64,000 nt of DNA from Simiduia curdlanivorans (GTDB lineage Bacteria; Pseudomonadota; Gammaproteobacteria; Pseudomonadales; Cellvibrionaceae): assembly GCF_030409605.1 (NCBI RefSeq), contig NZ_JAUFQG010000004.1, positions 540,430-604,429 on the forward strand, written 5' to 3'. The position numbers and the translations under genes are program-made. This document shows, in pieces, positions 3,051 through 18,325 of this stretch (its first letter is position 1; each line of letters starts with the position of its first letter). The notes beneath the pieces were generated by a model. It saw only the letters and a list, made by a program, of their open reading frames with translations, did not search any database and was not told the origin of the DNA.

Positions 3051-4796
3051 CTAGGATGTAGCCGGTTGCGCCTCATCAGTTCGCCGCGCTAACTCGGGCA
3101 GCTGATAGAAACATACCCTATCTTTGCCTTCATGTTTTGCCTGGTAGAGCGCCGTATCGGCCGCCTCAAACAAAGCGCTTGGGCTATCGAGCGCATCTTC
3201 CGTGCAGCAGGCAACACCTAAGCTAATGGTGACATGCAAACCTTTAATGGGCGACGCCTTCACCAAACAGCGCAAGCGCTCCGCCAGCACACCGGCCTGC
3301 TCCATGCCGGTATTTGGCACCAATACGGCGAACTCTTCGCCACCGTAGCGGCAGGCTAGGGTTGGGCGGCGAACATGTTTGCGCAAAATGCGGCCTAACT
3401 CTTCAATCACCTCATCGCCACTGGTGTGGCCGTGATCGTCATTCACTGCTTTAAAATTATCGATATCGATAACAATCAGCGACAGTGGCTTTTTTGTGCG
3501 CTTGGCCTTGTCAATTTCCCGCGGCAGCACTTCGTCGAAATGACGACGGTTCGCCAGAGCCGTTAAGGCGTCGGAATAGCCGAGCTTTTGCATTTCATTA
3601 ACCCGGGCACTCAAGGCTAAAGATAACAGCACCATTTCCAACAGAGAGCCCATTTGGAAGCTGTTCTGCGTGACAAAATTATGAGGCAAGAAACCGAACT
3701 GTTTGAACATATAGATAAGCACGGATACCAAGAGCGTAGCCCAGGCCACCATGAAATAACGAGCCGGCACAGAGCCGCGCAATAACACTAATGACCCCAG
3801 CAGCAATATACAAAAACACACCAGCACGGTGAGCAGTGAGTAGGCAAAAATTAAATCTTGATAACCCAAAAATGGTGTCACCAACAGTAGGGTCGCCGTC
3901 ACTACTTGCAACACAACAGCGATTCGATCGGTGCGCGGCACCCAGTGCTGGGTCGAACATACCACGCGGGAAAACTTTAACCCGAAGAGCAGTGAAACGC
4001 CGAGTAATAGCAGTAAACTTTGATTGGCAAGCCAGGGGCTATTGGGCCAAATATATTGAAACGCAAAGCCGTTATGTACCGACATATAAAGCCCGTAACT
4101 CACCACATACACCATGTAATAGATGTAGGCGCGATCTTTTACCGCCAAAAACAAAATTAGGTTATAAATAACTAAAACTAAAAAGCCACCGTAATAAGCG
4201 CCAAATAACAGCTGTTCACCGCTAACGCGGCTCAGGGTGTGGCCAGTATCCGCAATGGACAAACCAATGTTCATCGGGCCATCGGATTTAAAGCGGAAGT
4301 AAACAGTCTTATCGCTATTGGCCGGCACAGTTACGGGAAAGAGAAAATCACGCACGCCCACGGCGCGGGCATCAAATACTCGCCTGTCGCCGGTGGAGGT
4401 GGCGCGCCACACCCCAGCTAGGTCTTGATCCCAGAAGTCCACATAATCGATGAGCGGATAATCTTGTCGAATCATCAATGCCGCATCAGTAGTTTTGGGG
4501 TTGTGTAACTTAAGCGACACCCAGTAGGCAGAATGGCTGAAACCAAAATTAGCGGCTGTTCTCGCCAGCGGTTGCAAACGTGTAGCCGACTCCTGCAGCA
4601 GCTGCGGAAACTCGATCTCGGCCGCCTCCTCAATATATAGATTGATATCTTGAGTTAAGTCCGTGGTTGGCATGCTGGCAAATACCAGCACGGCAGAATC
4701 CTCTCGCAGTTGATTCGCCGCTTGTTCAGCGCCGGCTTGGCTCGGCAGCAGCAAAGGGAGAATGCTGATCATCAGGGTTAGAATTATTTTTTTCAT
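3051..4796 (-). CDS. sensor diguanylate cyclase, 7TMR-DISMED2 periplasmic domain + 7TM-DISM + GGDEF
   Basis: The ORF runs to 4997, but Met68 (MKKIILTLMISILPLLLPSQAGA) gives a clean signal peptide, so I place the start at ~4796. After a periplasmic region there are seven hydrophobic segments and then a GGDEF domain with RYGGEEF. Confidence 0.85.
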   Translation of the reverse strand: MKKIILTLMISILPLLLPSQAGAEQAANQLREDSAVLVFASMPTTDLTQDINLYIEEAAEIEFPQLLQESATRLQPLARTAANFGFSHSAYWVSLKLHNPKTTDAALMIRQDYPLIDYVDFWDQDLAGVWRATSTGDRRVFDARAVGVRDFLFPVTVPANSDKTVYFRFKSDGPMNIGLSIADTGHTLSRVSGEQLLFGAYYGGFLVLVIYNLILFLAVKDRAYIYYMVYVVSYGLYMSVHNGFAFQYIWPNSPWLANQSLLLLLGVSLLFGLKFSRVVCSTQHWVPRTDRIAVVLQVVTATLLLVTPFLGYQDLIFAYSLLTVLVCFCILLLGSLVLLRGSVPARYFMVAWATLLVSVLIYMFKQFGFLPHNFVTQNSFQMGSLLEMVLLSLALSARVNEMQKLGYSDALTALANRRHFDEVLPREIDKAKRTKKPLSLIVIDIDNFKAVNDDHGHTSGDEVIEELGRILRKHVRRPTLACRYGGEEFAVLVPNTGMEQAGVLAERLRCLVKASPIKGLHVTISLGVACCTEDALDSPSALFEAADTALYQAKHEGKDRVCFYQLPELARRTDEAQPATS

Positions 4797-5074
4797 TTCA
4801 CAACCTAATTGAGGGCGAACATCTTCATGTGCACAACAGCACAGCCAACCGCACCGAAGATGGAAAACACAAGCAAGTGAGATCAAGGGTGCGAAGGGTG
4901 GCGCACTATTATTTTGTTGATTTAGGCGACATAACGCAACTAAACCCACAATGGCCGAGGTTATTCCAGTAGCAATAACTAAAACGCAATATAACAAGTC
5001 TTGCCAGGTTTCGTGAACTTAGTGCGCAAATATGTTAAAAAGCGCGCTTGGGTGAAAATAATAAGGATCACACA

Positions 5075-6733
5075 GTGACCACTAAGACTTGGGGTAGCCG
5101 ATGCGTAGGTGTATTGGCGTTAGCCGTCTGTATTTCCGCTTGCGACAATCACGATACCAGCCACAACAACAAAGCGCCTAGCACTAACGCTGCAGGCCTT
5201 ACCTTGCTGGCGCAAAATTGGAGCGATCAAGATCGCGAAGTAGCTTGGTTCACCTCCTTCGGTTCTCGGGTGATGCCCTACTCGTGGTTTTTAGCACTGG
5301 AGCAGGCGGCTAACCAGCTACCGTTTAACCAAGTCGCGCACATGGAAAGCTTCGGCTTTTCGATGCCGGGGGCGAGCGAGGCAAACCCGGATAATGTCGC
5401 CATAGGCCTTACCAAAACACCCGAGCGCGATGGCCACGAATGGATCGGGCTGGGCTGCTCTGGCTGCCACTCGGGCCAAGTTCACTATCGAGGCACGCGC
5501 CTACACATAGACGGCGGCGCGGCACTGATCGATTTTCAAGGTTTTGAACAAGCGGCTATCGATGCACTTGCTGCCACCCTCGACGACAGCGAAAAGCTGC
5601 AGCGCTTTGCCGCTAAATTAGGCCTAAGCAATATCGACGACCTGGCCGCCGAGCTTGCTAGCTGGACCGATTCACTGATTGCGCGGCAAACCATTAACCG
5701 CACCGAGAGTGATTATGGCTATGGCCGGCTCGACGCCTTCGGGCAAATTTTTAATGCCGTGGCGGTTGAGTTTCTCGGCATCGACGAAAACCGCCGCGAC
5801 CCGAATGCGCCGGTGAGCTACCCAGTGCTGTGGGATGCCTCACATCTAGATTTAGTGCAGTGGAACGCCTCAGCACCCAATGCAGGGCCTGGCCCTATCG
5901 TCCAAAATGCCACCACGGCGCTCGCGGTTTTCGGCCACATGGATATCGAAAAATCCGGCAACGGCTTTGGCTTTGCCTCCAACGTGGAAGTGGGTAATTT
6001 AGGCGCGATTCAAGATGCCTGGTACCAACTAACCGCACCCCAGTGGCCCGAATCCATCCTTGGCACAATAGACCAAACCTTGGCCGCGCAAGGTCGCGCC
6101 ATTTACGCCGAAAACTGCTTGGCCTGCCACGCACTGTCAGATCGCAATGATCCAAAACGGCGCATCAAGGCCAGCGCCGTCGCCCTCGATGTGGTTGGCA
6201 CAGATCCAGCCATGGCGGAAAATTTTGCCCATGCCACCGCCAAGGCCGGCGCCTTCGCCGGCAAAAAATTGATGTTTATTGCTGGCCCGGTGATTGAAGA
6301 AGAATCACCCACTATTTTACTCGTGGCCCACGCGGCCATGGGCGCCCTGCTCGACAAACCCTTCTCGGCGCTGTGGCAGGGTGTGCTGAGTATGCATTCG
6401 GTGATCGAAGCACCCGTCGACCCGCTGCCGCTCTATTACAAGGCCAGGCCGCTGTCGGGCATTTGGGCCTCGGCCCCTTATCTGCACAACGGTTCGGTCA
6501 TGAGCTTGGCCGATTTATTAGAGCAACCAGCGCAAAGAGCAAGTCGCTTTTTTGTCGGCAGGGTTGAGTTTGATCCCATCAACGTCGGCCTAAGCAGCCA
6601 AGTGCTAGCCCCAAATCAAGTGTCTGAATTGAACACCGAGCTGCACGGCAACAGCAATGCCGGCCACCTTTTTGGCACGGCTCTGGCTAGCTCAGACAAA
6701 CGCGCGCTGCTCGAATATTTGAAAACACTGTAG
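5075..6733 (+). CDS. di-heme c-type cytochrome lipoprotein, CCP/MauG-superfamily-like, unusually long (~550 aa)
   Basis: A GTG at aa 10 of ORF 5048..6733 is preceded by AAGGA. There is a signal peptide with lipobox ISAC. Two CxxCH motifs (CSGCH, CLACH) lie ~215 aa apart. A PYLHNGSV motif near the C-terminus resembles the conserved P-Y-F/M-H-N/D-G motif at the second heme of cytochrome c peroxidase/MauG enzymes. Confidence 0.7.
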   Translation: MTTKTWGSRCVGVLALAVCISACDNHDTSHNNKAPSTNAAGLTLLAQNWSDQDREVAWFTSFGSRVMPYSWFLALEQAANQLPFNQVAHMESFGFSMPGASEANPDNVAIGLTKTPERDGHEWIGLGCSGCHSGQVHYRGTRLHIDGGAALIDFQGFEQAAIDALAATLDDSEKLQRFAAKLGLSNIDDLAAELASWTDSLIARQTINRTESDYGYGRLDAFGQIFNAVAVEFLGIDENRRDPNAPVSYPVLWDASHLDLVQWNASAPNAGPGPIVQNATTALAVFGHMDIEKSGNGFGFASNVEVGNLGAIQDAWYQLTAPQWPESILGTIDQTLAAQGRAIYAENCLACHALSDRNDPKRRIKASAVALDVVGTDPAMAENFAHATAKAGAFAGKKLMFIAGPVIEEESPTILLVAHAAMGALLDKPFSALWQGVLSMHSVIEAPVDPLPLYYKARPLSGIWASAPYLHNGSVMSLADLLEQPAQRASRFFVGRVEFDPINVGLSSQVLAPNQVSELNTELHGNSNAGHLFGTALASSDKRALLEYLKTL

Positions 6734-6855
6734 CGCGCGGTACAGGAAGATTTATCCCGCCGCGGCAAAAATTTTTACTGCGGCACGGGCGTCGCCCGTT
6801 AAAGCAGCAACATTATTCTAACTATCTGATGTCAGCCTTTCGTAAGGATTACGCT

Positions 6856-9138
6856 ATGCTCAACTTTCTGAAAAAACTGCTAACCTCGCGCTGGCTTTGG
6901 CGTGTGATTATGTTGCTGGCAGTGCTCGCAGCGCTGGCCGTTCTGGCCTTCGTGTATTTCGTGCAGAGCAGCAAGGGCATCCAACCGCCGGAAGAGCACA
7001 CAGACAAAACCGTGTATTTAAATCAGAATTGGGGGGTGCAAGAGCGCGACACTTACTACTATTCGCCCCAAGGTACAGCGGTACCCCAAGGCGCCACCTT
7101 GGGCGCAGTGCGCTACGAATGGTTTGTCAATTTAGAGCTGCCGCTGTCTACCGAGCGCTTTGCTAGCCCGAGCAATATGCGCCGGTTTAAATTTTTAGTA
7201 GATCCAGCCCCCACACCGGCCAACCCAGATCACCTGCCCGTGGGCTTCACCAAACACTTCGATCAAAACATAGGCGACACCGTATTAGACATCACCTGCG
7301 CGGCCTGCCACACCGGCGAGCTGCACTACCAAAAAGACGGTGTTAATTACGCGCTGCGGGTCGACGGCGGCCAAGCCATGCACGCCTTCACCGACTTAAA
7401 CCGCGGCACCTTTGGCCCCACATTGATTACCGCGCTGCTGGAAACTTACGTCAACCCGGCTAAATTCAATCGCTTTGCCGATAAGGTATTAGCCGAAGGC
7501 GGCGACCGCGATTTACTCAAGCAACAGCTGGGTAAAAACCTCGGCGCGTTTTTAAGCATCAAACAAAATAACCCGCTCAAACATTTGTACCCCACACGGG
7601 AAGGCTATGGCCGCACAGATGCCCTAGGTCGCATTGCCAACACCCTGTTTGGCGATCACTTAATTGAAAGCAACATGCAGGTATCAGCAGCGCCAGTGAG
7701 CTACCCCTTCCTGTGGAATATTTGGAAATTTAACTGGGTGCAATACAACGGCTCGGTGGCACAACCCTTAGCGCGCAACGTGGGCGAAGCCTTAGGCGTG
7801 GGTGCGCATATTCCCCTGCGCAGCCCCGAGGGCGCGCCACTGCCCGCCGCTGAAATGTTCCGCAGCTCCGTGCGCATTGCCGATATTGAAAAAATCGAAC
7901 TGGCGCTGCAAAAACTTGTTGAACCCGAGTGGCCGAGCGATATTTTCGGCGCCGTTAATCAACCACTAGCCGAACAGGGCGAGACCTTATTTAAACAACA
8001 CTGCGTCGAGTGTCATGGCCCGCACGTGGCGAGCAAAGCGCGTCAGATGCAAGAAGCACCGCTGAAAAAATCTGTACACGATCAGTGGTTGATTGAAGTC
8101 ATCGAGCTAGATCATATTGGCACAGACGCCAATGCGGCACAGGGTTTCGTGGAAAAAACTTACGACTTATCGCCCGCAGGCATTACCAAAGACACCATTC
8201 ACCAAGTGCTCTACCCGCTATTTGAGCGCCGCCTAGCGCGCGATGTGTTGGCGCGCCTACAAACCCTGGCGATAACAGAACAACTAAGTGAGGAAGCGCG
8301 CGCGGCCTTCGCGGCGCTGGCGGCGCAATACCCGCCGGCCGATCATTTAGCCGATGCCGGTTTCGAGCCCTCGCCCTTTCCCGCCATCCTGGCGGCGCTA
8401 AATCAATTCGATTTAAAACCCAGCTACAGCCAAACCGTGGATAGCCAAGCCTATAAACAGCTTAACTGCGGCTTCAAATGCCAAGTGAATGCGCTCTGGT
8501 GGGACATTAATTTTGGCCGCGAGGCCAATACCAAGCTGGTTAGTAGTTTAGATCCCACTAAGCTCACCGAGGGCTTGGGCTTAAATATCATTGGCCTGTT
8601 AATCAAAAACCGCTACTACCAAGACAACAACCTAAGCTACGAACAAATTCAATGCTTGGAAGGTTTCGGCACCTTGGATTTACCGCAGCAGATTGCCGGC
8701 TATAAACCGCGCCCACTGGCTGGCGTTTGGGCCACGCCGCCGTTTCTGCACAACGGCTCCGTGCCCACAATTTATCAAATGCTGATGCCGCCCGAGCAGC
8801 GCGATAAACGCTTCTTCGTCGGCCGCCGCGATTACGACCCAGTGCATTTAGGCTATATCTCTAGCCCGGCGACCGACGCTGAAACCGACGGCCTCTGGTT
8901 CGACACCAGCATTAGCGGCAACCACAATACCGGGCATGGTTTCAGCGCCACACCCGAGCAGTGGGCGGCCTACAAAGGCGACTATAAAAACAACCCGCTG
9001 CCGAAGGGTATTATTGGCCCACTGCTGAGCCACGAGCAGCGCCTCGCATTAATCGAATACCTAAAAATTCATCGCGATAACCCAGCTGGTTATCAATTTG
9101 AGCCGGCGCCCAGCTGCCTCGCGAGCAGCGCTCTGTGA
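6856..9138 (+). CDS. di-heme c-type cytochrome, CCP/MauG-superfamily-like, N-terminal membrane anchor, 760 aa (paralog of the preceding gene)
   Basis: An ATG at aa 10 of ORF 6829 is preceded by AAGGA. One N-terminal transmembrane helix precedes CAACH and CVECH motifs and PFLHNGSV. The C-terminus (LIEYLKIH) matches the LLEYLKTL end of the upstream paralog. Confidence 0.75.
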   Translation: MLNFLKKLLTSRWLWRVIMLLAVLAALAVLAFVYFVQSSKGIQPPEEHTDKTVYLNQNWGVQERDTYYYSPQGTAVPQGATLGAVRYEWFVNLELPLSTERFASPSNMRRFKFLVDPAPTPANPDHLPVGFTKHFDQNIGDTVLDITCAACHTGELHYQKDGVNYALRVDGGQAMHAFTDLNRGTFGPTLITALLETYVNPAKFNRFADKVLAEGGDRDLLKQQLGKNLGAFLSIKQNNPLKHLYPTREGYGRTDALGRIANTLFGDHLIESNMQVSAAPVSYPFLWNIWKFNWVQYNGSVAQPLARNVGEALGVGAHIPLRSPEGAPLPAAEMFRSSVRIADIEKIELALQKLVEPEWPSDIFGAVNQPLAEQGETLFKQHCVECHGPHVASKARQMQEAPLKKSVHDQWLIEVIELDHIGTDANAAQGFVEKTYDLSPAGITKDTIHQVLYPLFERRLARDVLARLQTLAITEQLSEEARAAFAALAAQYPPADHLADAGFEPSPFPAILAALNQFDLKPSYSQTVDSQAYKQLNCGFKCQVNALWWDINFGREANTKLVSSLDPTKLTEGLGLNIIGLLIKNRYYQDNNLSYEQIQCLEGFGTLDLPQQIAGYKPRPLAGVWATPPFLHNGSVPTIYQMLMPPEQRDKRFFVGRRDYDPVHLGYISSPATDAETDGLWFDTSISGNHNTGHGFSATPEQWAAYKGDYKNNPLPKGIIGPLLSHEQRLALIEYLKIHRDNPAGYQFEPAPSCLASSAL

Positions 9139-11105
9139 GCCAAGTAAAAAATTTCCAACAGGTGCGCGAGGCCGAGCAAATTTGGCTAAGCGAACGCCGA
9201 AAGCAGGCGCAGGTTGATCCTGTGCTACCGGAAATTGGCCTAGCCTTTTCCGGTGGCGGCATACGCTCGGCGTGTTTTCATTTGGGCTTTTTGCAGGCGC
9301 TGATCGAGCGCAAAAAACTTCAGCGCGTGGATTATTTATCCACGGTATCGGGCGGCGGTTATATCGGTGCCTGTTTGCAATGGTTGAAACACCGCGCCAG
9401 TTCCAGCGCCAACGACGACTTGTTTGCCCAGCCGGTAAACGACAGCACCGTGTTGAACTGGTTGCGCGCGCACGGCAAGTATTTGGTCGACGGCAAGGGC
9501 ATTAACAACATGACCTTGCTGGCGGCGCTTTTAGCCAGCACGCTGTTTAACCTCGCGGTGGTTTTGCCGCTGTTGCTGCTGTGCGTTTGGCTGTTCGGCT
9601 TTCCACACACGCAACTGTACTGGCCACCGCACTGGCACTTGCCCGGTGCCGACGTGATAGAGGGGCACAGCGGCTATCTACTGGCGCTGCTCATCAGTGC
9701 CGGTTCATTTATCAGTTTCTTGATCGCCGTGCCGCTGATGGCACTTTGGCGTCAGGGCCGCACCCAGCACAACTTCAAACCCCGGCTGTGGATGGGCAGG
9801 CTGCTCAATATCGGCGTCATCGCGGGGCTAATTGGCTTACTCCCCATCGCGGCGCAATTAAGCGATATGCTGTTCGCCTTAGCCGGCTCCGAATCCCTGT
9901 CCCAAATTGGCAAACATCTAAACTATTTGCTGCCCTTCATCGGCGGCGTGTTGACCATTTCGCGCGCAACCTTTAAACCCGGTTTGGCCCTCGCTGGCCT
10001 CACGCTCATGCTCTACGGGCTGGCCGCTTTCGCCTACCATTTAGTTTTTCACACAGGGTTAATTGCACAGCCCGGTTACTGGGCCTTCTTGGCATTGGCC
10101 ATCGCGCTGCTAATGTTGGCCAGCGTTAACCGCACCTCGATGCACAGCTACTACCTATCGCGCCTGTGTAACGCATTTTTTATGTGCACAAAAGCCGACG
10201 ACAATCACGGCCAAGATCTAGCCCTAGCCACATTAACCCCGGCCACGGGCGCACCCCTGCCACTGATCAACACCACCATGAGCACGGCCAGCTCGAGCAA
10301 CCGGCTCTGGCGCGAGCGCATGGGTTTGAGCTTTACCCTGTCGCCGCTGTTTTGTGGCGCGCCACCTACCGGCTTTGCCAGCACCTCGGCGTTTCAATCT
10401 GGCCGCTTGACCCTAGGCGAGAGCATGACCACCTCGGGCGCGGCGGTAGACCCAGGCACCGCGCAAACCGCCAACGGCGCGCTGAGTTTTTTAATGGCGC
10501 TACTAAATTTTCGCCTCGGCTTCTGGACCAAGGCGCCGAGAGCGGCTGATACCTTTTTTTCCCATATGCCCTACTGGCTCATCATGCGCGAAATGTTTGG
10601 CTTCGGCTTAAGCGAAAGCCATAACAATATTCACTTAAGCGACGGCGGCCACTTTGAAAACCTCGGCGTCTACGAGCTCATCCGCCGCGAGCTGTCGATT
10701 ATTGTGGCCGGTGATGCGGGAGCAGACCCGAGCGTCAATTTCTCCGATTTAGGCTTGCTGATTCAGCGCGCCTACGCCGACTTCGATTGCCATATCGCCA
10801 TCAATACTGCGCAGCTTAGCGAGGTAACAGACGGCATACACGCCAGCTGTTTCGCCGTGGGCAATATCACCTACAGCTCCGGCAAAACCGGTAAGCTCTA
10901 CTATGTGAAAAGCCTACTCACCGCAGCCGCTGGCACCCAACTGGCGAGCTTTGCCTACACAGATCCAAGCTTCCCCAATGACAGCACGGCAAATCAATTC
11001 TATGATGAAGAGCACTTCGATGCCTATCGAGCCTTGGGAAAGCTCAATATGCTTTCGCTGCTAGAGCAACACGAAGCCGATATTTTTCCCGAGCCACTTA
11101 ACTAA
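9135..11105 (+). CDS. patatin-like phospholipase with a polytopic membrane insertion between catalytic Ser and Asp
   Basis: A GTG start overlaps the TGA stop of the upstream gene (GTGA). It has the oxyanion motif FSGGGIRS, the serine motif TVSGGG and, ~430 aa later, DGGHFENLGV (the patatin/cPLA2 catalytic Asp motif). Residues ~130-330 form multiple hydrophobic helices. Confidence 0.8.
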   Translation: MSQVKNFQQVREAEQIWLSERRKQAQVDPVLPEIGLAFSGGGIRSACFHLGFLQALIERKKLQRVDYLSTVSGGGYIGACLQWLKHRASSSANDDLFAQPVNDSTVLNWLRAHGKYLVDGKGINNMTLLAALLASTLFNLAVVLPLLLLCVWLFGFPHTQLYWPPHWHLPGADVIEGHSGYLLALLISAGSFISFLIAVPLMALWRQGRTQHNFKPRLWMGRLLNIGVIAGLIGLLPIAAQLSDMLFALAGSESLSQIGKHLNYLLPFIGGVLTISRATFKPGLALAGLTLMLYGLAAFAYHLVFHTGLIAQPGYWAFLALAIALLMLASVNRTSMHSYYLSRLCNAFFMCTKADDNHGQDLALATLTPATGAPLPLINTTMSTASSSNRLWRERMGLSFTLSPLFCGAPPTGFASTSAFQSGRLTLGESMTTSGAAVDPGTAQTANGALSFLMALLNFRLGFWTKAPRAADTFFSHMPYWLIMREMFGFGLSESHNNIHLSDGGHFENLGVYELIRRELSIIVAGDAGADPSVNFSDLGLLIQRAYADFDCHIAINTAQLSEVTDGIHASCFAVGNITYSSGKTGKLYYVKSLLTAAAGTQLASFAYTDPSFPNDSTANQFYDEEHFDAYRALGKLNMLSLLEQHEADIFPEPLN

Positions 11106-11120
11106 CCCACACCGCCGAGA

Positions 11121-11471
11121 ATGATTATGAAAACGATAAAATTACTAGCCATTGGCGCCAGCTTATTTACCAGCGTTACAGCGATGGCGGCCGACAACTA
11201 CCTGTGCACCAACGCCGGTAGCGAGCGCAGCGTGAAAGTGATTTACCAAGCCCCTGGTGTTGCCGTGCCCTGCGAAGTGCAATACACCAAAGATGGCATC
11301 AGCCAAACCCTGTGGACGGCGGAAAACCTAACCGGTTATTGCGAAGAGAAAGCCCAAGCCTTTGCCGACAAACTCAGTGGCTGGGGTTGGCAGTGCAACC
11401 AGCAGGGCGACGGAATGATGGACGCCAGCGACGAAGACATGACCCCAGCTGAAGGCGCCGACGGCAACTAA
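11121..11471 (+). CDS. small secreted Cys/Trp-containing protein, function unknown
   Basis: 116 aa starting 15 bp after the patatin stop. It has a signal peptide (LLAIGASLFTSVTAMA), four Cys, a SGWGWQCNQQ segment and an acidic tail. Confidence 0.65.
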   Translation: MIMKTIKLLAIGASLFTSVTAMAADNYLCTNAGSERSVKVIYQAPGVAVPCEVQYTKDGISQTLWTAENLTGYCEEKAQAFADKLSGWGWQCNQQGDGMMDASDEDMTPAEGADGN

Positions 11472-12945: not shown

Positions 12946-13036
12946 TAATTCTCGCGACTATGGTGTTGGTTACGCTATCATAAGCGCCATTTTTAGGGTG
13001 CTACAACGCAGCATCAACCAGACAGGGAGCTTAGTC

Positions 13037-14488
13037 TTGATCATCATCCCAACGGAAAAGCGCTTCGACTGGCGCTACGCACCCACGGTCATGTTCGGCA
13101 TCGTGCTGATCAACGTGCTAGTGTTCTTTTTCTATCAATCCGGCGATGACAATAAGATTGAGCAAGCCCTCGAGATCTATCAGCAGCAGGGCTTTTTAGA
13201 GCTTGAATGGCCAGAGTACAAAAAATATCTGACCACAAAAAGCACCGAGCAGGACGATGAACAACTCACCTACGTAGAGGAACTTTTCGAACAGGAAGAT
13301 TTCGGCAATTTAGCCGTAGAAATAGTTTTCGATACGGCCTTTTACGACCACCTGTTCAAAGACCCATACAATCTAATTGGCTACCAAAAAGTCGAAGTCT
13401 GGCTCGACCAGAGAGCAAAAATCAACGCCAGCATTCTCAACCTCAGCTTTATTGCCTACGGCTTAGTTCCCGCCGACCTCTCGATCACCACCTTGTTTAC
13501 CACCCAATTTTTGCACGGCGACACCATGCACCTATTGGGCAATATGTTCTTCTTAGTGATTTGCGGCTTTGCGGTAGAAGCGGCTATCGGCCATTGGCGT
13601 TTTCTGGCTTTCTATTTAATTTCCGGTGTATTCGCCAGCCTAGCCCATGCGCTGCTAGACCTCTCCAGCACCCAACCCTTGGTTGGCGCGTCTGGCGCTA
13701 TATCCGGCGTGATGGCGATGTATTTAGCGGTATTTAAATTTCGAAAAATCGAATTTTTCTATTGGCTATTTATTTTTGTCGGCTACATCAGAGCACCGGC
13801 CTTGATTATTCTGCCCATTTACATCGGTAAAGAGCTAGTGAGCTTTTATACCGATACCGATTCAAACGTGGCCGTTATGGCGCACGCCGGCGGCTTTGTC
13901 ATGGGCGCCCTGCTGATGTTCGTCAGCCAGTGGCTTAGCCCGAAAAGTATCGATGTTGAGTACATTGAAACCGACCAAAGCATAGACCCCTATCAAGAAG
14001 CGCTGGCGCTGGTGTATACCGACATCGAAAACTTTCGCTTTGACTCGGCCTATAAAAATACCCAAGCCTTGATTGCCCAGCACGGCGAAAACTTTAGGAA
14101 CCTTGCGCTCCTTGCCCAGCTAGCTCAACTCAGAAGCCCAGCCGATCAGCAGGCCGCCATGCTTGGCCTATTGAAGGTGGAGACGCAAGAGCCTATCGAA
14201 TTAGAGCGCCAAGCCCAATTACTCATCGACTCAGCCCAGCCAGCCGATTATTTATCCGAACAGGAACTGTGCAAGCTCGGTAGCCGCCTGTGCCGGTTAG
14301 AAAACCTCAAACCTGCCGAAGCGCTATTTGACATAGTGCAGAATAGATACGGCCACCTAGCAGCCAGCCAAAACAATCTCGCCCTGCTGGCAAAAAAATT
14401 GTCTATTGCCTTTGCCAAAACCAATAATGCCCTGAAGTCCAAGCACTACCATGGCCTTGCCAGCAAGCTTGTAGGGAGCACACTGTAA
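13037..14488 (+). CDS. rhomboid-family intramembrane serine protease with C-terminal helical (TPR-like) extension
   Basis: Catalytic GASGAISG and AHAGGF motifs lie in a 6-TM core. The ORF opens at 12998 (GTG). A TTG at ~13037 with GGGAG 7 nt upstream or an ATG at ~13091 are plausible starts. Confidence 0.75.
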   Translation: MIIIPTEKRFDWRYAPTVMFGIVLINVLVFFFYQSGDDNKIEQALEIYQQQGFLELEWPEYKKYLTTKSTEQDDEQLTYVEELFEQEDFGNLAVEIVFDTAFYDHLFKDPYNLIGYQKVEVWLDQRAKINASILNLSFIAYGLVPADLSITTLFTTQFLHGDTMHLLGNMFFLVICGFAVEAAIGHWRFLAFYLISGVFASLAHALLDLSSTQPLVGASGAISGVMAMYLAVFKFRKIEFFYWLFIFVGYIRAPALIILPIYIGKELVSFYTDTDSNVAVMAHAGGFVMGALLMFVSQWLSPKSIDVEYIETDQSIDPYQEALALVYTDIENFRFDSAYKNTQALIAQHGENFRNLALLAQLAQLRSPADQQAAMLGLLKVETQEPIELERQAQLLIDSAQPADYLSEQELCKLGSRLCRLENLKPAEALFDIVQNRYGHLAASQNNLALLAKKLSIAFAKTNNALKSKHYHGLASKLVGSTL

Positions 14489-16062
14489 TGGAATATTGCC
14501 ACTTTCACCCGCTCTCATCGGCCACCTTTTATTGCGACCACTGCCTTACCAACCTGTGCGACCACTGCATAGACGACACTCAACAGCGCGGTGGCGAGCG
14601 CTGTATTAGCTGCGCAAAACCGCTCATTAGCTTGGGCGCAGCGCACAGCGCCGAGCCATTCTGGCGTAAACTAAAAGACGCTTTTCACTACCCACTCTAC
14701 GGTCAGTCGTTAACGTTAATCATTGGCGTCGCCGTGATGACCAGCGTGGTGGCCTATATTCCCTTTGCCATCGTCTTCTATCTCATGGCCGTGGGCGCTT
14801 TAATGCGCTATAGCTTTGCCTGCCTAGAAAATACCGCCAATGGCAAAATGACGGCGCCCGATATCACCGAGGCTTACGAAGGTGGCATACTGCTGATATT
14901 TCAATTAATCGGCATTGTCGTCATTATGACGGCAGCTGTTTTTGGCGTTAACGAATTTTTAGGCGAAGGCCTTGCCCGCCTACTCGCCGTATTTTGTCTA
15001 TTGAGTTTTCCCGCGATTATTATTTTATTCGCCTTGAACAGAAATATGTTCGACGCCATTAATCCTCTCAGTATCACTCAGCTGATACTGTCAGTAGGCC
15101 TCTCCTACGGCGTGCTATTGGGTTTAATCTTGGTAATGAGCGCATCCGTTAGCGTTATTCACGAACTCATCGGTGCAGAATTTTCCTTCATCAATGCCTT
15201 ACTACAAGGCATCGTTTCCAACTTCTATACCGTTGTGACCTTTCATATCATGGGCTATATGATCTTCCAATATCAGGCCGAGCTAGGCTTCGTTGCCCGA
15301 GAAGATCACGGTGGTATCGCCAAAAGCAAAACTGAGCAAGACTTGCACAATGCCAAAATAGACATAGCACTTAAACTAGGGCAATACGGCCGAGTGGTAG
15401 ATCTGTTCGGCGAAGCCAATCGGAAATTCCCCAATGACTACAATTACTATGTGCGCTGCTTCGACCTTCTCTGCGCTATCAAACAAACCGATCGCTTAGA
15501 AAAGTTTTTACCTTTCTACTTTGATTTTTTACCCAAGGCTCAACGCGGCGATCAAATTTACCCGAGCTTTAAACGCGCCCTCGGCCTCATACCCAACTAC
15601 CTACCCGCCACCGCCAAGCTGCGCCACCAGCTGGCGGAGCAATGCCAATTCAAAGGCGACCCCAAGTCAGCGCTGCGCCTGCTCAACGGCATTCACAAAC
15701 ACTTCCCCACCTACCCAAAACTAACGGCCGCCTACGAAGTGATGGAGCGCGCCTTGGGCGACCTACCCAACATGGAAAAGCAGCGCGCGCAATGTAAAAC
15801 ATTCATTGAAAACTTAAAACAAAAGGCCGCAGAAGCAGAAGCGGCAAAACAGGCGGCGCAAGCCATACTAAAACCCAAGAACAAGCCCATGCTCGACAAG
15901 TCGGCTCTGCGGCCGAATAAAGACAACACGCCACAGGAAGCCCAAACACAGCCGCTGCGCAAGAGCGAGCAACAAAAGCTACGGGCACAGCAATTAGCGG
16001 AGAGAAATGCTAAGGGAGAGGCAGAGGGCAAAGACTTGCCACCGATTGAGTTTAAGCCTTAG
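14488..16062 (+). CDS. membrane protein with N-terminal B-box-type zinc finger, polytopic middle and Lys/Gln-rich C-terminus
   Basis: The ATG overlaps the rhomboid stop (TAATG). CHFHP..YCDHCLTNLCDHC..CISC is a Cys/His zinc-binding pattern. Eight or more hydrophobic helices follow, and the C-terminal ~90 aa are low-complexity K/A/Q/E-rich. Confidence 0.65.
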   Translation: MEYCHFHPLSSATFYCDHCLTNLCDHCIDDTQQRGGERCISCAKPLISLGAAHSAEPFWRKLKDAFHYPLYGQSLTLIIGVAVMTSVVAYIPFAIVFYLMAVGALMRYSFACLENTANGKMTAPDITEAYEGGILLIFQLIGIVVIMTAAVFGVNEFLGEGLARLLAVFCLLSFPAIIILFALNRNMFDAINPLSITQLILSVGLSYGVLLGLILVMSASVSVIHELIGAEFSFINALLQGIVSNFYTVVTFHIMGYMIFQYQAELGFVAREDHGGIAKSKTEQDLHNAKIDIALKLGQYGRVVDLFGEANRKFPNDYNYYVRCFDLLCAIKQTDRLEKFLPFYFDFLPKAQRGDQIYPSFKRALGLIPNYLPATAKLRHQLAEQCQFKGDPKSALRLLNGIHKHFPTYPKLTAAYEVMERALGDLPNMEKQRAQCKTFIENLKQKAAEAEAAKQAAQAILKPKNKPMLDKSALRPNKDNTPQEAQTQPLRKSEQQKLRAQQLAERNAKGEAEGKDLPPIEFKP

Positions 16063-16177
16063 GGCCCTTTAGATATACCGTGAAGTAAGACGCTATTGAG
16101 TTTCATTCGAGCACTAAGATATTTAAATTAAGGATTATGCACGACTTCAGGAGATTAACCGTTACAGCTTTTAAAGC

Positions 16178-16378
16178 TTAACTGAGAACCCCATCATAAG
16201 ACCAAAATCGCTTCCAGCTGCTTGGCTTTGGATGCGCAAGAGCATATTCCCTTCGCTTTATGTGATCCAAACTTTCGAACCAGTCGGCAAATTCAAACCA
16301 GTAACTTTCCCCCGGATCTTGCCGCCACCACATCGAGCCTAAAGGCTTGTTCGGATATTTTTCCCAAGGAGGCATCAT
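16178..16378 (-). CDS. hypothetical small Trp-rich protein
   Basis: 66-aa ORF in the AT-rich islet (MMPPWEKYPNKPLGSMWWRQDPGESYWFEF...). Its reality is uncertain. Confidence 0.35.
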   Translation of the reverse strand: MMPPWEKYPNKPLGSMWWRQDPGESYWFEFADWFESLDHIKRREYALAHPKPSSWKRFWSYDGVLS

Positions 16379-16570
16379 TGCCTATACCATAGAAATAGAA
16401 ACAATTTTGGAGTTAATAAACAACCCTTAACGGTACATAGAATGCAACCCATGCCGGTTAAAGACCTATGACTTAGTGCCATTAGAAAACGGTAATTAAC
16501 AGTTAACACTTGTAGCGAGGCGGGATTAGTGCCGAGTTCAGCAGCGATAGGAGCGGCTTGACCACCCTTA

Positions 16571-16948
16571 TTAATTTCCATTCGCACACACCAACTTGAG
16601 GTCGTGATTAATGGACTTGTAAAATTGAGGGTAGCCACTATCGGTTTTGTATGACACTACAACCCCATTCTCTAGTAACCCGATATTGTAGGACGGATAA
16701 GTATACCAAAGCTTAGGTAGATACGACGCATAAGACGGACTCCAACCTTCATTATTACTCCTAATCCAATTTGTAATTTCTAGGTATCTCTCATCTGCGC
16801 CAAAAATTTGCTTACCGCAATATTCAAATTCCGAAGGTAACAACGCAGCATCGATACTTTGCGATCGAAATACATATAGCAGTAATCCAACCACTAGGAA
16901 AACCACAGTTAGAAATATAACTCCGATGATCTTTGGTGCACTTTTCAT
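16571..16948 (-). CDS. hypothetical membrane-anchored protein
   Basis: 125 aa with an N-terminal TM helix (IIGVIFLTVVFLVVGLLLYVF) and an aromatic-rich ectodomain, in a low-GC region. Confidence 0.5.
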   Translation of the reverse strand: MKSAPKIIGVIFLTVVFLVVGLLLYVFRSQSIDAALLPSEFEYCGKQIFGADERYLEITNWIRSNNEGWSPSYASYLPKLWYTYPSYNIGLLENGVVVSYKTDSGYPQFYKSINHDLKLVCANGN

Positions 16949-16994
16949 AGAATCTTAACGCCAATGTTATGCGGAATTATTTTTGGATAAAATT

Positions 16995-17786
16995 ATGATT
17001 AAATTAGTGCTAGTTTTAATTCTAGCTGTACAAATTTTAACGGTTCTTGTAGGAAAAGAAGAAAGTGACTCGCCCACAAGTTACGATAGTGAATTAAATG
17101 CAAAGCAACTGCGAGAAAAACTTGTTAAATCGTGCAGCAAAAAAAATGAAATTTATGCATTCTGTACTTGTTTTCGGGAAAATCTTGATTTAGTGACAGA
17201 TGATGACCTGACTAAATACCGAGATCGAAAAAGGGTTTTAGAGGCTGAGGCGATGAAAGCGAAGGTATCAGGTGATATAGTTAAGCTAGATGTAATTACC
17301 ACTGACATCAGTGAAGGATTGATTGATAACAAGATAAGTAAAAAATGCATGCCACCGCTTTTATTGGAGGGCGAGGAGTATGAGAAAAATTTTAATAAAG
17401 GAATCTATCACTACGCAAAAAAGGATTACAAAAAAGCAATAGAGTATTGGTTGCCATACGCTGAAGCTGGCAGCGGGCCCGCAATGGCAAACCTAGCTGC
17501 GCTCTACAATAGAGAAATAGATGGACAGATTGATCTACTAAATTTATACCATTGGAGTTTTAAGTCAGGTCTTAATGGAGATTCACAGGCGCAATTTAAT
17601 TTGGCTGTAATGTTTTTAAACGGCGAGACGGGAAGCAAGGATCTGATAAAGAGTTATGTATGGGCTGAGAAGGCGGCGCAAGGTGGTCACGACACAGCGC
17701 AAAAGCTTAAGGGTGACCTTGATCGTTATCTATCCAATGATCAGATCGTTGAGGCACAAAAGTACTCAGCAGAGATATTTCAATAG
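16995..17786 (+). CDS. Sel1-like repeat (SLR/TPR-like) protein with signal peptide
   Basis: ATG at aa 5 of ORF 16983. Sel1 repeat signatures: AEAGSGPAMANLAALYN, GDSQAQFNLAVMFLNGETG, AEKAAQGGHDTAQKL. Confidence 0.7.
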   Translation: MIKLVLVLILAVQILTVLVGKEESDSPTSYDSELNAKQLREKLVKSCSKKNEIYAFCTCFRENLDLVTDDDLTKYRDRKRVLEAEAMKAKVSGDIVKLDVITTDISEGLIDNKISKKCMPPLLLEGEEYEKNFNKGIYHYAKKDYKKAIEYWLPYAEAGSGPAMANLAALYNREIDGQIDLLNLYHWSFKSGLNGDSQAQFNLAVMFLNGETGSKDLIKSYVWAEKAAQGGHDTAQKLKGDLDRYLSNDQIVEAQKYSAEIFQ

Positions 17787-17917
17787 GGCCAAGGAAGTTG
17801 CATAACAAATCAAGGCAGCCGAACCAAAACGCTTACTTCGTTCGCGTTTCGGTCGGCTGCTTGAGGCGTTATATGCCGTGTGAAGCGAAGCGTAACGAGG
17901 TCACATTGACATTTTTG

Positions 17918-18325
17918 TTATGCATTTTCTTCCTCATCAAAGTACATATCCCAAGAAATACCTAACCCATATTTTACCAACTCTTTCATCATTGCCACGC
18001 TCAGTCTAGGCCCACCCTGGCCAGTTGAATCCCAACGGCAAAATATATCAGTTGAACAGCCAGAATCGCGAAGGGATGATAGCTCACCCTCTTTACCGTT
18101 TAGTAGAGAAAGCAAAAGCTCCAAATGTTTCACGTTATCGGTGGAATTCAAATCAACTTCTGTAGTTCTCGACCAAAAGTTCAACTCTCTTCTGGGTTTG
18201 TATTTTGAATTAGGGTCTCTTGGTACTGAATCAGTCGATTGGATGCCAATATACTTTTCGATTTCATCAGGGTGCATTTCATCTGAAAATATTCTTAATG
18301 TAGCGTATGTTTCAGTACAAGCCAT
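17918..18325 (-). CDS. DUF4279-like hypothetical protein
   Basis: 135 aa. The N-terminus TYATLRIFSDEMHPDEIEKYIGIQSTDS resembles the DUF4279 family N-terminal signature. Low GC. Confidence 0.5.
   Translation of the reverse strand: MACTETYATLRIFSDEMHPDEIEKYIGIQSTDSVPRDPNSKYKPRRELNFWSRTTEVDLNSTDNVKHLELLLSLLNGKEGELSSLRDSGCSTDIFCRWDSTGQGGPRLSVAMMKELVKYGLGISWDMYFDEEENA

Follow-up and report, generated by a model that had tools for sequence, protein, structure and literature searches.

A predicted cPLA2-like lipase with a membrane bundle inside its catalytic domain, encoded in a conserved gene cluster of Simiduia curdlanivorans

Can the catalytic serine and aspartate of a patatin-like lipase build one active site when a polytopic membrane segment separates them in the chain, and what could such an enzyme be for? 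Enzymes of the patatin and cytosolic phospholipase A2 (cPLA2) groups are normally soluble and are recruited to membranes. The question is raised by a lipase gene in a 64,000-nucleotide stretch of Simiduia curdlanivorans (assembly GCF_030409605.1, contig NZ_JAUFQG010000004.1, 540,430-604,429 of the forward strand), referred to here as the window, and all positions given below count from its first letter. The gene occupies 9135-11105 on the + strand and encodes a predicted membrane-integrated protein of 656 amino acids (aa) of the patatin/cPLA2 superfamily. A first-pass annotation had proposed that its Ser and Asp motifs lie on either side of a membrane insertion of at least five helices, and that its translation is coupled to an upstream di-haem gene. 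Here, the motifs, the fold, the membrane topology and the genomic neighbourhood of this protein are analyzed, and a function is proposed on that basis.

The three motifs on which the lipase assignment depends were all found where the annotation had placed them. The oxyanion-hole motif GGGIRS (aa 40-45, 9252-9269) was located by motif scan, the nucleophile motif VSGGG (aa 71-75, 9345-9359) contains Ser72 in the context T-V-S-G-G, and the catalytic-Asp motif DGGHFENLG (aa 503-511, 10641-10667) starts with Asp503, which is separated from Ser72 by 431 residues. In an alignment of 40 lipase homologues with 39-90% identity, G40-S45, V71-G75 and D503-G505 were invariant, and so was N509. GGGIRS has the G-G-x-R/K form of an oxyanion hole and was invariant in all homologues examined, and DGG at aa 503-505 has the D-G-[AG] form of a catalytic-Asp motif. 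It had been allowed that homologues might lack DGG, which would make the motif accidental; because the Ser and Asp motifs are both invariant across the homologues, DGG is not fortuitous. In the alignments Ser72 falls on the serine that acts as nucleophile in VipD (GASAG) and cPLA2-delta (GISGS), and it is invariant in the family. The motif around it reads T-V-S-G-G in this protein and [ST]-V-S-G-G family-wide, the first Gly of G-x-S-x-G being replaced. The GTG start at 9135 is supported, because the lipase residues are invariant in the alignment from F7 onward.

The same motifs extend far beyond the close homologues. The full gene was read in 73 distant relatives from many phyla (seven further loci were cut or frameshifted), and the motif trio was found in 72 of them, the exception being locus L025. 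The resulting family pattern is GGG[IVF]RS ... [ST]VSGGG[YF] ... DGGxxxN, with a Ser-Asp spacing of 413-821 aa across the relatives.

The Pfam threshold, the sequence motifs and the predicted fold all place the protein in the patatin superfamily. The Pfam Patatin model (PF01734) was matched at 45.0 bits against a gathering cut-off of 27.7, so the patatin-like identity given by the annotation held, with the restriction that only model positions 1-103 of 191 were aligned, to aa 36-137. A partial match of this kind, to the first half alone, would be expected of a domain interrupted by an insertion. The Pfam PLA2_B model (PF01735) stayed below threshold (12.3 bits against 23, E 0.058, aa 34-83 only), no C2 or other extra domain was detected by domain search of the lipase, and NCBIfam holds no model for it. 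The structure was predicted with AlphaFold2 from the 40-sequence alignment (mean pLDDT 84.5, pTM 0.84). In the model, the N-terminus forms a 24-residue helix that leads directly into the catalytic core, and the core has the patatin alpha/beta/alpha fold together with elements of a cPLA2-type catalytic domain that go beyond the patatin core.

Fold comparison ranked human cPLA2-delta (5ixc_A) highest with a score of 29.5 over 351 aligned residues, followed by human cPLA2-alpha (1cjy_B) with 27.1 over 380 residues. Patatin, PlpD, CapV, CapE, iPLA2-beta and VipD reached 17-19 over 220-266 residues, and ExoU 9.4 over 201 residues. Foldseek also placed cPLA2 at the top, at E ~1e-6. More residues align with cPLA2 than the 326 that make up the C-terminal half, and judging from these lengths the model very probably unites the N- and C-terminal halves in one cPLA2-like domain. 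Matches at the sequence level were obtained for the N-terminal block only, with VipD as the best PDB hit (E 0.004) and cPLA2-delta close to it (E 0.0045), and when the C-terminal half was searched as a profile, no sequence in the PDB came up at E<=10. It is therefore the predicted structure and the N-terminal block that carry the link to cPLA2. As far as the model goes, the eukaryotic cPLA2 is the closest structural relative of this protein, which by sequence is not a member of PF01735.

How the two halves could meet depends on the segment between them. The N-terminal catalytic half (aa 1-124, 9135-9506), which aligns with the nucleophile region of VipD and cPLA2-delta, is predicted to be cytoplasmic, and so is the C-terminal half with its cPLA2-like elaborations (aa 331-656, 10125-11102). 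Between them lies a predicted transmembrane insertion at aa 125-330 (9507-10124), placed about 50 residues past Ser72 and about 170 residues ahead of Asp503. Kyte-Doolittle analysis gave five strong hydrophobic segments at aa 125-161, 179-205, 218-250, 282-305 and 308-336, whereas the AlphaFold2 model contains six long helices at aa 125-154, 179-204, 215-250 (kinked), 253-280, 282-305 and 313-328. The first and fifth of these transmembrane helices (TM1 and TM5) carry essentially no charged residue over 22-30 positions in the 40 homologues and have a mean hydropathy of about 2. The insert alone had no match in Pfam, and no signal peptide was found in the lipase.

The orientation of the bundle was deduced from the mean numbers of Lys and Arg residues in the 40-homologue alignment. 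These are 2.9 in the N-terminal flank, 0.7 in loop 1, 3.2 in loop 2, 0.7 in loop 3, 2.65 in loop 4, 0.17 in loop 5 and 1.95 in the C-terminal flank, an alternation that gives the positive-inside pattern of six helices with N-in/C-in topology. An even number of helices is needed, because both catalytic halves must share one side of the membrane, and an even number with N-in/C-in topology puts both on the cytoplasmic face. We consider it very likely, from the model and the loop charges taken together, that the protein has this architecture of six helices, N-in/C-in, with both catalytic halves in the cytoplasm. The earlier proposal of a polytopic insertion between Ser and Asp is thereby borne out as regards membrane helices at about aa 125-330, and the count of five is replaced by the six of the model.

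An artefact would be the simplest way to explain such an arrangement away: the hydrophobic region could be the buried core of a soluble protein, the DGG a chance occurrence, or the gene the product of a fusion or frameshift. Nothing was found in favour of this explanation; helix 4 is weakly hydrophobic, but the doubt it leaves concerns only the exact helix count. Full-length colinear homologues of 650-730 aa occur in many genera, the motifs are invariant, TM1 and TM5 are uncharged, the loops follow the positive-inside pattern, and the confident AlphaFold2 model shows long helices where a buried soluble core had been offered as the alternative. A soluble core, a fortuitous DGG and a fusion or frameshift were rejected on these grounds, and we regard an artefact of any kind as hardly credible.

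With the dyad and fold in place, the protein is likely a lipid acyl hydrolase acting on a membrane lipid, as judged from its sequence, and its enzyme class would most likely be phospholipase A or lysophospholipase. The chemistry itself is probably conventional. The six-helix bundle would hold the cytoplasm-facing active site permanently at the inner leaflet, in place of the recruitment of eukaryotic cPLA2 to membranes by Ca2+ and its C2 domain, and it may in addition guide the substrate or the product.

The reaction could instead be a transfer, in which an acyltransferase or transacylase moves acyl chains between membrane lipids in the manner of some eukaryotic cPLA2 and PNPLA members. The same Ser/Asp fold transacylates in some of these enzymes. 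An active site fixed at the bilayer would favour lipid acceptors over water, and the unusual [ST]VSGGG motif is strictly conserved; but sequence does not tell transfer from hydrolysis, and a link to periplasmic oxygenases, discussed below, is easier to conceive with a released free fatty acid. We give the transfer reaction only a small chance and retain the acyl hydrolase as the preferred assignment.

The split-domain architecture is not peculiar to the Simiduia genome but, as far as alignments and hydropathy can indicate, that of a very large family. The closest protein, from Simiduia litorea, is 90% identical, and the full-length colinear homologues of 650-730 aa were found in Marinobacterium, Gallaecimonas, Permianibacter, Aliikangiella, Steroidobacteraceae and many metagenomes. 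A scan with one genome per species detected relatives in at least 595 species, and the phyla and classes among the matches listed include Gamma-, Beta- and Alphaproteobacteria, Acidobacteriota, Campylobacterota, Verrucomicrobiota, Gemmatimonadota, Planctomycetota, Nitrospirota and others. When 1.84 billion representative proteins were searched with a profile, 25,785 matches were obtained at E<=1e-3, of which 16,549 also passed E<=1e-10 and 8,684 passed E<=1e-30, each match being a cluster at 50% identity. The search for homologues with the same insertion, which the annotation had suggested, showed that the arrangement is widespread, with 4-10 hydrophobic segments between the motifs. Database labels for the homologues go no further than 'patatin-like phospholipase family protein' or 'hypothetical'.

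Loci L046-L084 (among them L063 from Luteimonas, L075 from Bradyrhizobium and L079 from Chromobacterium) represent a long form of the family. It has 8-10 hydrophobic segments, a Ser-Asp spacing of 550-820 aa and an extra conserved block, R-x-Y-S-N-Y-L-[ST]-P, past the Ser motif, and some members carry long C-terminal extensions. The Chromobacterium long-form protein gave no Pfam match at all, Patatin included.

What the enzyme might serve in Simiduia is indicated by its neighbours. Directly upstream lies the gene of a 769-aa c-type di-haem protein, here called di-haem B (6829-9138, +), with an N-terminal membrane-anchor helix and two CxxCH motifs. It is preceded by the gene of a 561-aa paralogue, di-haem A (5048-6733, +), whose N-terminus (...LAVCISAC) is a lipoprotein-type signal and whose CxxCH motifs are at aa 137 and 357. 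Both proteins are RoxA-like: besides the two CxxCH motifs, each matches the Pfam RoxA-like cytochrome c segment, and both match NCBIfam NF040606, the 769-aa protein with 475 bits and the 561-aa protein with 518 bits. The closest fold of the membrane-anchored 769-aa protein is that of the rubber oxygenase RoxA, and RoxA (4b2n) was the sole PDB sequence hit of the 561-aa paralogue.

The third partner is encoded divergently at 3051-4997 on the - strand and, according to its Pfam matches, is a diguanylate cyclase composed of 7TMR-DISMED2, seven-transmembrane (7TM) and GGDEF domains, with a GGEEF motif. Its ORF (open reading frame) was called from a TTG codon, 67 codons ahead of the signal peptide MKKIILTLMISILPLLLPSQAGA at Met68, and its homologues align only from about aa 34-150 on. 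Met68, at about position 4796, is probably the true start, and with this start the GGDEF gene and the di-haem operon would have a divergent intergenic region of about 250 bp in common.

Conservation of the cluster was assessed by tblastn of the window neighbours against 84 related loci. The gammaproteobacterial clade considered here is the lipase subfamily with at least 36% identity, which comprises Simiduia, Permianibacter, Marinobacterium, Marinobacter, Kangiellaceae, Steroidobacteraceae and Lysobacterales. Wherever the flank of a clade locus is long enough, the gene immediately upstream of the lipase is di-haem B, and di-haem A is present in most clade loci, sometimes relocated. The lipase start GTG (9135-9137) overlaps the stop TGA (9136-9138) of the 769-aa ORF, giving the GTGA at 9135-9138 that had been taken as a sign of translational coupling; a 4-nucleotide ATGA or GTGA overlap between the two genes recurs in 15 of 19 non-redundant clade loci, which substantiates that view. 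Orthologues of the DISMED2-GGDEF protein (42-52% identity) stand beside the module in 16 of the 19 non-redundant loci in three gene orders, a weaker GGDEF match of 27% is found in a 17th (L008), and the Marinobacterium locus has no GGDEF neighbour. In Simiduia and Permianibacter the GGDEF gene lies upstream in divergent orientation, in Kangiellaceae it lies immediately downstream, and in Lysobacterales it forms with di-haem A a divergent pair downstream of the lipase. That the same gene set is kept through rearrangement is good evidence for a functional link.

Extra genes with GGDEF domains were seen near the module in several of these loci, namely at 10014-10733 (-) in L001/L002, at 13245-15607 in L008 and at 1254-1733 in L016, which hints at a wider connection to cyclic di-GMP (c-di-GMP). 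Immediately downstream of the lipase in the window, 15 bases past its stop, starts a 116-aa ORF with a signal peptide (11121-11471, +); it has no family match, was conserved among the fetched loci only in Simiduia litorea (93% identity) and is probably not part of the module. In the neighbour clustering no family other than the module genes and presumed shadow ORFs recurs beyond closely related loci, and no common partner was found around the distant relatives. The surrounding genes of the window are of the housekeeping kind and encode S-adenosylhomocysteine (AdoHcy) hydrolase, MTHFR, RNA methyltransferases and a rhomboid protease.

These surroundings bear on whether the lipase is an effector, either against phages, like CapV in the cyclic-oligonucleotide-based anti-phage signalling system (CBASS), or a secreted toxin such as ExoU or VipD. 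Patatin-fold enzymes are common as defence and virulence effectors, and the best PDB match of the N-terminal block is VipD itself. No module gene had a match in PADLOC, however; cyclase, secretion and mobile-element context is absent; housekeeping genes flank the module, which in different orders is a conserved part of the chromosome; and secretion as a toxin is incompatible with a polytopic protein of the inner membrane. An assignment as a CBASS-type effector (CapV/CapE) was rejected, as PADLOC gave no match and no CD-NTase gene adjoins. An effector role is very improbable.

Within the module, we lean by a small measure towards an inner-membrane Ser/Asp-dyad acyl hydrolase that feeds acyl chains to periplasmic di-haem oxygenases and is linked to c-di-GMP. 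The lipase would free an unsaturated acyl chain from a membrane glycerophospholipid of the cell itself. It would be made in step with the membrane-anchored periplasmic di-haem B and probably works with it, and di-haem B and the lipoprotein paralogue would oxygenate the freed chain in the periplasm. A connection to c-di-GMP could be made by the DISMED2-GGDEF receptor, which would either sense the product or control the lipase.

The oxygenase part of this proposal is suggested by analogy. Pseudomonas aeruginosa has an oleate-diol synthase, PA2077/PA2078, made up of two tandem di-haem paralogues of the RoxA group that reside in the periplasm; one of them is predicted to be membrane-associated, and they turn oleate into 10-hydroperoxy and 7,10-dihydroxy oxylipins (PMC4496055). 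The Simiduia module likewise contains two paralogous RoxA-like di-haem proteins, one with a membrane anchor and one with a lipoprotein-type signal, a likeness by description. On this analogy, the hand-over to an oxygenase and the formation of an oxylipin-like signal are put forward tentatively and considered somewhat doubtful when taken by themselves.

A feature of the lipase that may be connected with a periplasmic partner was seen in the membrane region. His178 (9666-9668), His261 (9915-9917) and His302 (10038-10040) lie at the periplasmic ends of TM2, TM4 and TM5, and they are kept in 13-17 of 17 lipases of the di-haem clade and not in distant relatives without di-haem neighbours. Gly180 and Arg217, the latter on the cytoplasmic side, are likewise conserved only in the di-haem-associated clade. 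The periplasm-facing histidines could be a contact, metal, haem or hand-over site for the periplasmic partner, in a region in which the alignment is uncertain.

Several observations weigh against the hydrolase-oxygenase pathway or against parts of it. The lipase domain is predicted to lie in the cytoplasm and the di-haem enzymes in the periplasm, which would require passage of the product through the membrane. Domains of the DISMED2 type are usually thought to bind carbohydrate or ions, not lipid. The window di-haem proteins share with RoxA only a 38-aa sequence block and the fold, and their similarity to PA2077 and PA2078 is one of description. The Ser motif lacks the first Gly of G-x-S-x-G, and helix 4 has a mean hydropathy of only 0.67, so that the even helix count depends on AlphaFold2 and the loop charges. 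Most distant relatives of the lipase have no di-haem neighbours, with the exception of L026, L039 and L040, and as far as gene context indicates the general role of the family would not depend on di-haem partners. Finally, no activity, substrate or product is on record for any member of the lipase family.

Two further explanations assign the same genes other roles. In the first, the module repairs oxidised lipids: the lipase would excise peroxidised acyl chains from phospholipids of the inner membrane, the di-haem proteins would act in the periplasm as cytochrome c peroxidases that reduce the freed lipid hydroperoxides, and the GGDEF protein would sense oxidative stress of the envelope. We rate this as unlikely. 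In the second, the lipase is a tool of c-di-GMP-controlled membrane remodelling, in which the GGDEF receptor acts upstream and locally made c-di-GMP switches the lipase on as cyclic dinucleotides do with CapV and CapE; the lipase would then change the lipid composition, and the di-haem proteins would have a separate or accessory role. The Pfam and NCBIfam scans, however, revealed no c-di-GMP-binding domain or motif in the lipase, the lipase is coupled to di-haem B more tightly and more universally than to the GGDEF gene, and Marinobacterium does without a GGDEF neighbour; such remodelling is viewed as decidedly unlikely.

The acyl hydrolase that supplies periplasmic oxygenases can also be extended to a bolder form, a self-contained bacterial counterpart of the eukaryotic lipid-mediator cascade from cPLA2 to oxygenase. 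In this form the bundle, with its clade-specific histidines towards the periplasm, would pass the chain to a docked RoxA-like dioxygenase, the second paralogue would convert it further, the 7TM c-di-GMP receptor would read the oxylipin-like product, and the wider family would be a prokaryotic sister group of the eukaryotic cPLA2. This extension is speculative and rather unlikely in its entirety.

Apart from the module, two other features of the window were observed. At 12998-16062 (+), the genes of a 496-aa membrane protein with a rhomboid domain and of a 524-aa polytopic protein, which has a Cys-rich N-terminal segment and TPR-like repeats at its C-terminus, overlap by 1 nucleotide at 14488, and from this overlap they look like another translationally coupled membrane pair. 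The region 16001-18000 is a low-GC patch (0.41 against about 0.51-0.55 elsewhere in the window) that encodes a Sel1-repeat protein, a DUF4279 protein and an ORF without family match, and it may have been horizontally acquired.

The new elements are the split-domain architecture, the extent of an unstudied family and its conserved link to RoxA-like oxygenases and a diguanylate cyclase. No account of a patatin or cPLA2 protein with an intradomain membrane insert, or of this gene cluster, was found in the published literature, most subscription journals being outside the coverage. A catalytic domain split by a polytopic bundle is thus undescribed in the literature found, yet very common in bacteria. 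As the predicted fold is closest to human cPLA2, the family bears on the origin of the eukaryotic group IV enzymes. With its four genes, the cluster forms a unit that is experimentally tractable, since it can be deleted, expressed and assayed.

Compared with the known enzymes of the superfamily, the spacing of the dyad is less exceptional than the bundle. In potato patatin the Ser and Asp are about 140 aa apart, whereas in cPLA2-alpha (1CJY) Ser228 and Asp549 are already about 320 aa apart. The annotation had judged the spacing unusual against patatin; the 431 aa stand, but cPLA2 is the fairer comparator, and the novelty lies in the membrane bundle and not in the length of the spacing. Although the fold of the lipase is closest to that of human cPLA2 (1CJY alpha, 5IXC delta), the structure-based identity is only 17%. 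The lipase is bacterial, its Ser motif is TVSGG instead of the GxSGS of cPLA2, and unlike cPLA2-alpha it has no C2 domain and carries a predicted permanent six-helix bundle instead of relying on Ca2+-dependent recruitment. With respect to canonical patatins (potato patatin 1OXW, PlpD, iPLA2-beta, PF01734), about 100 extra residues of the lipase align only with cPLA2, only the first half of the Pfam model is matched, and a polytopic membrane insert is present. CapV, CapE, ExoU and VipD have in common with the lipase the patatin fold and action on membrane phospholipid, the latter as predicted here, but they are soluble proteins that depend on cyclic nucleotides or host factors for activation, whereas the lipase is predicted to be an integral membrane protein. 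With a polytopic membrane domain inside its catalytic domain, the lipase is unlike every characterised member of the superfamily.

At the level of the pathway, the nearest comparison is the oxylipin system of P. aeruginosa. The Simiduia di-haem proteins belong to NF040606, and no function is on record for them. In P. aeruginosa the oleate-derived oxylipins promote biofilm formation, and the fatty acid is scavenged from the host (PMC5155153). The output there is biofilm-related and the Simiduia module is linked to a diguanylate cyclase, although the sensor of the P. aeruginosa pathway is not a GGDEF receptor. If the proposed pathway is true, the membranes of bacteria may themselves be a source of oxygenated lipid signals, in addition to the host fatty acids that P. 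aeruginosa uses, and the linked lipase would make the module self-sufficient where P. aeruginosa depends on scavenging from its host.

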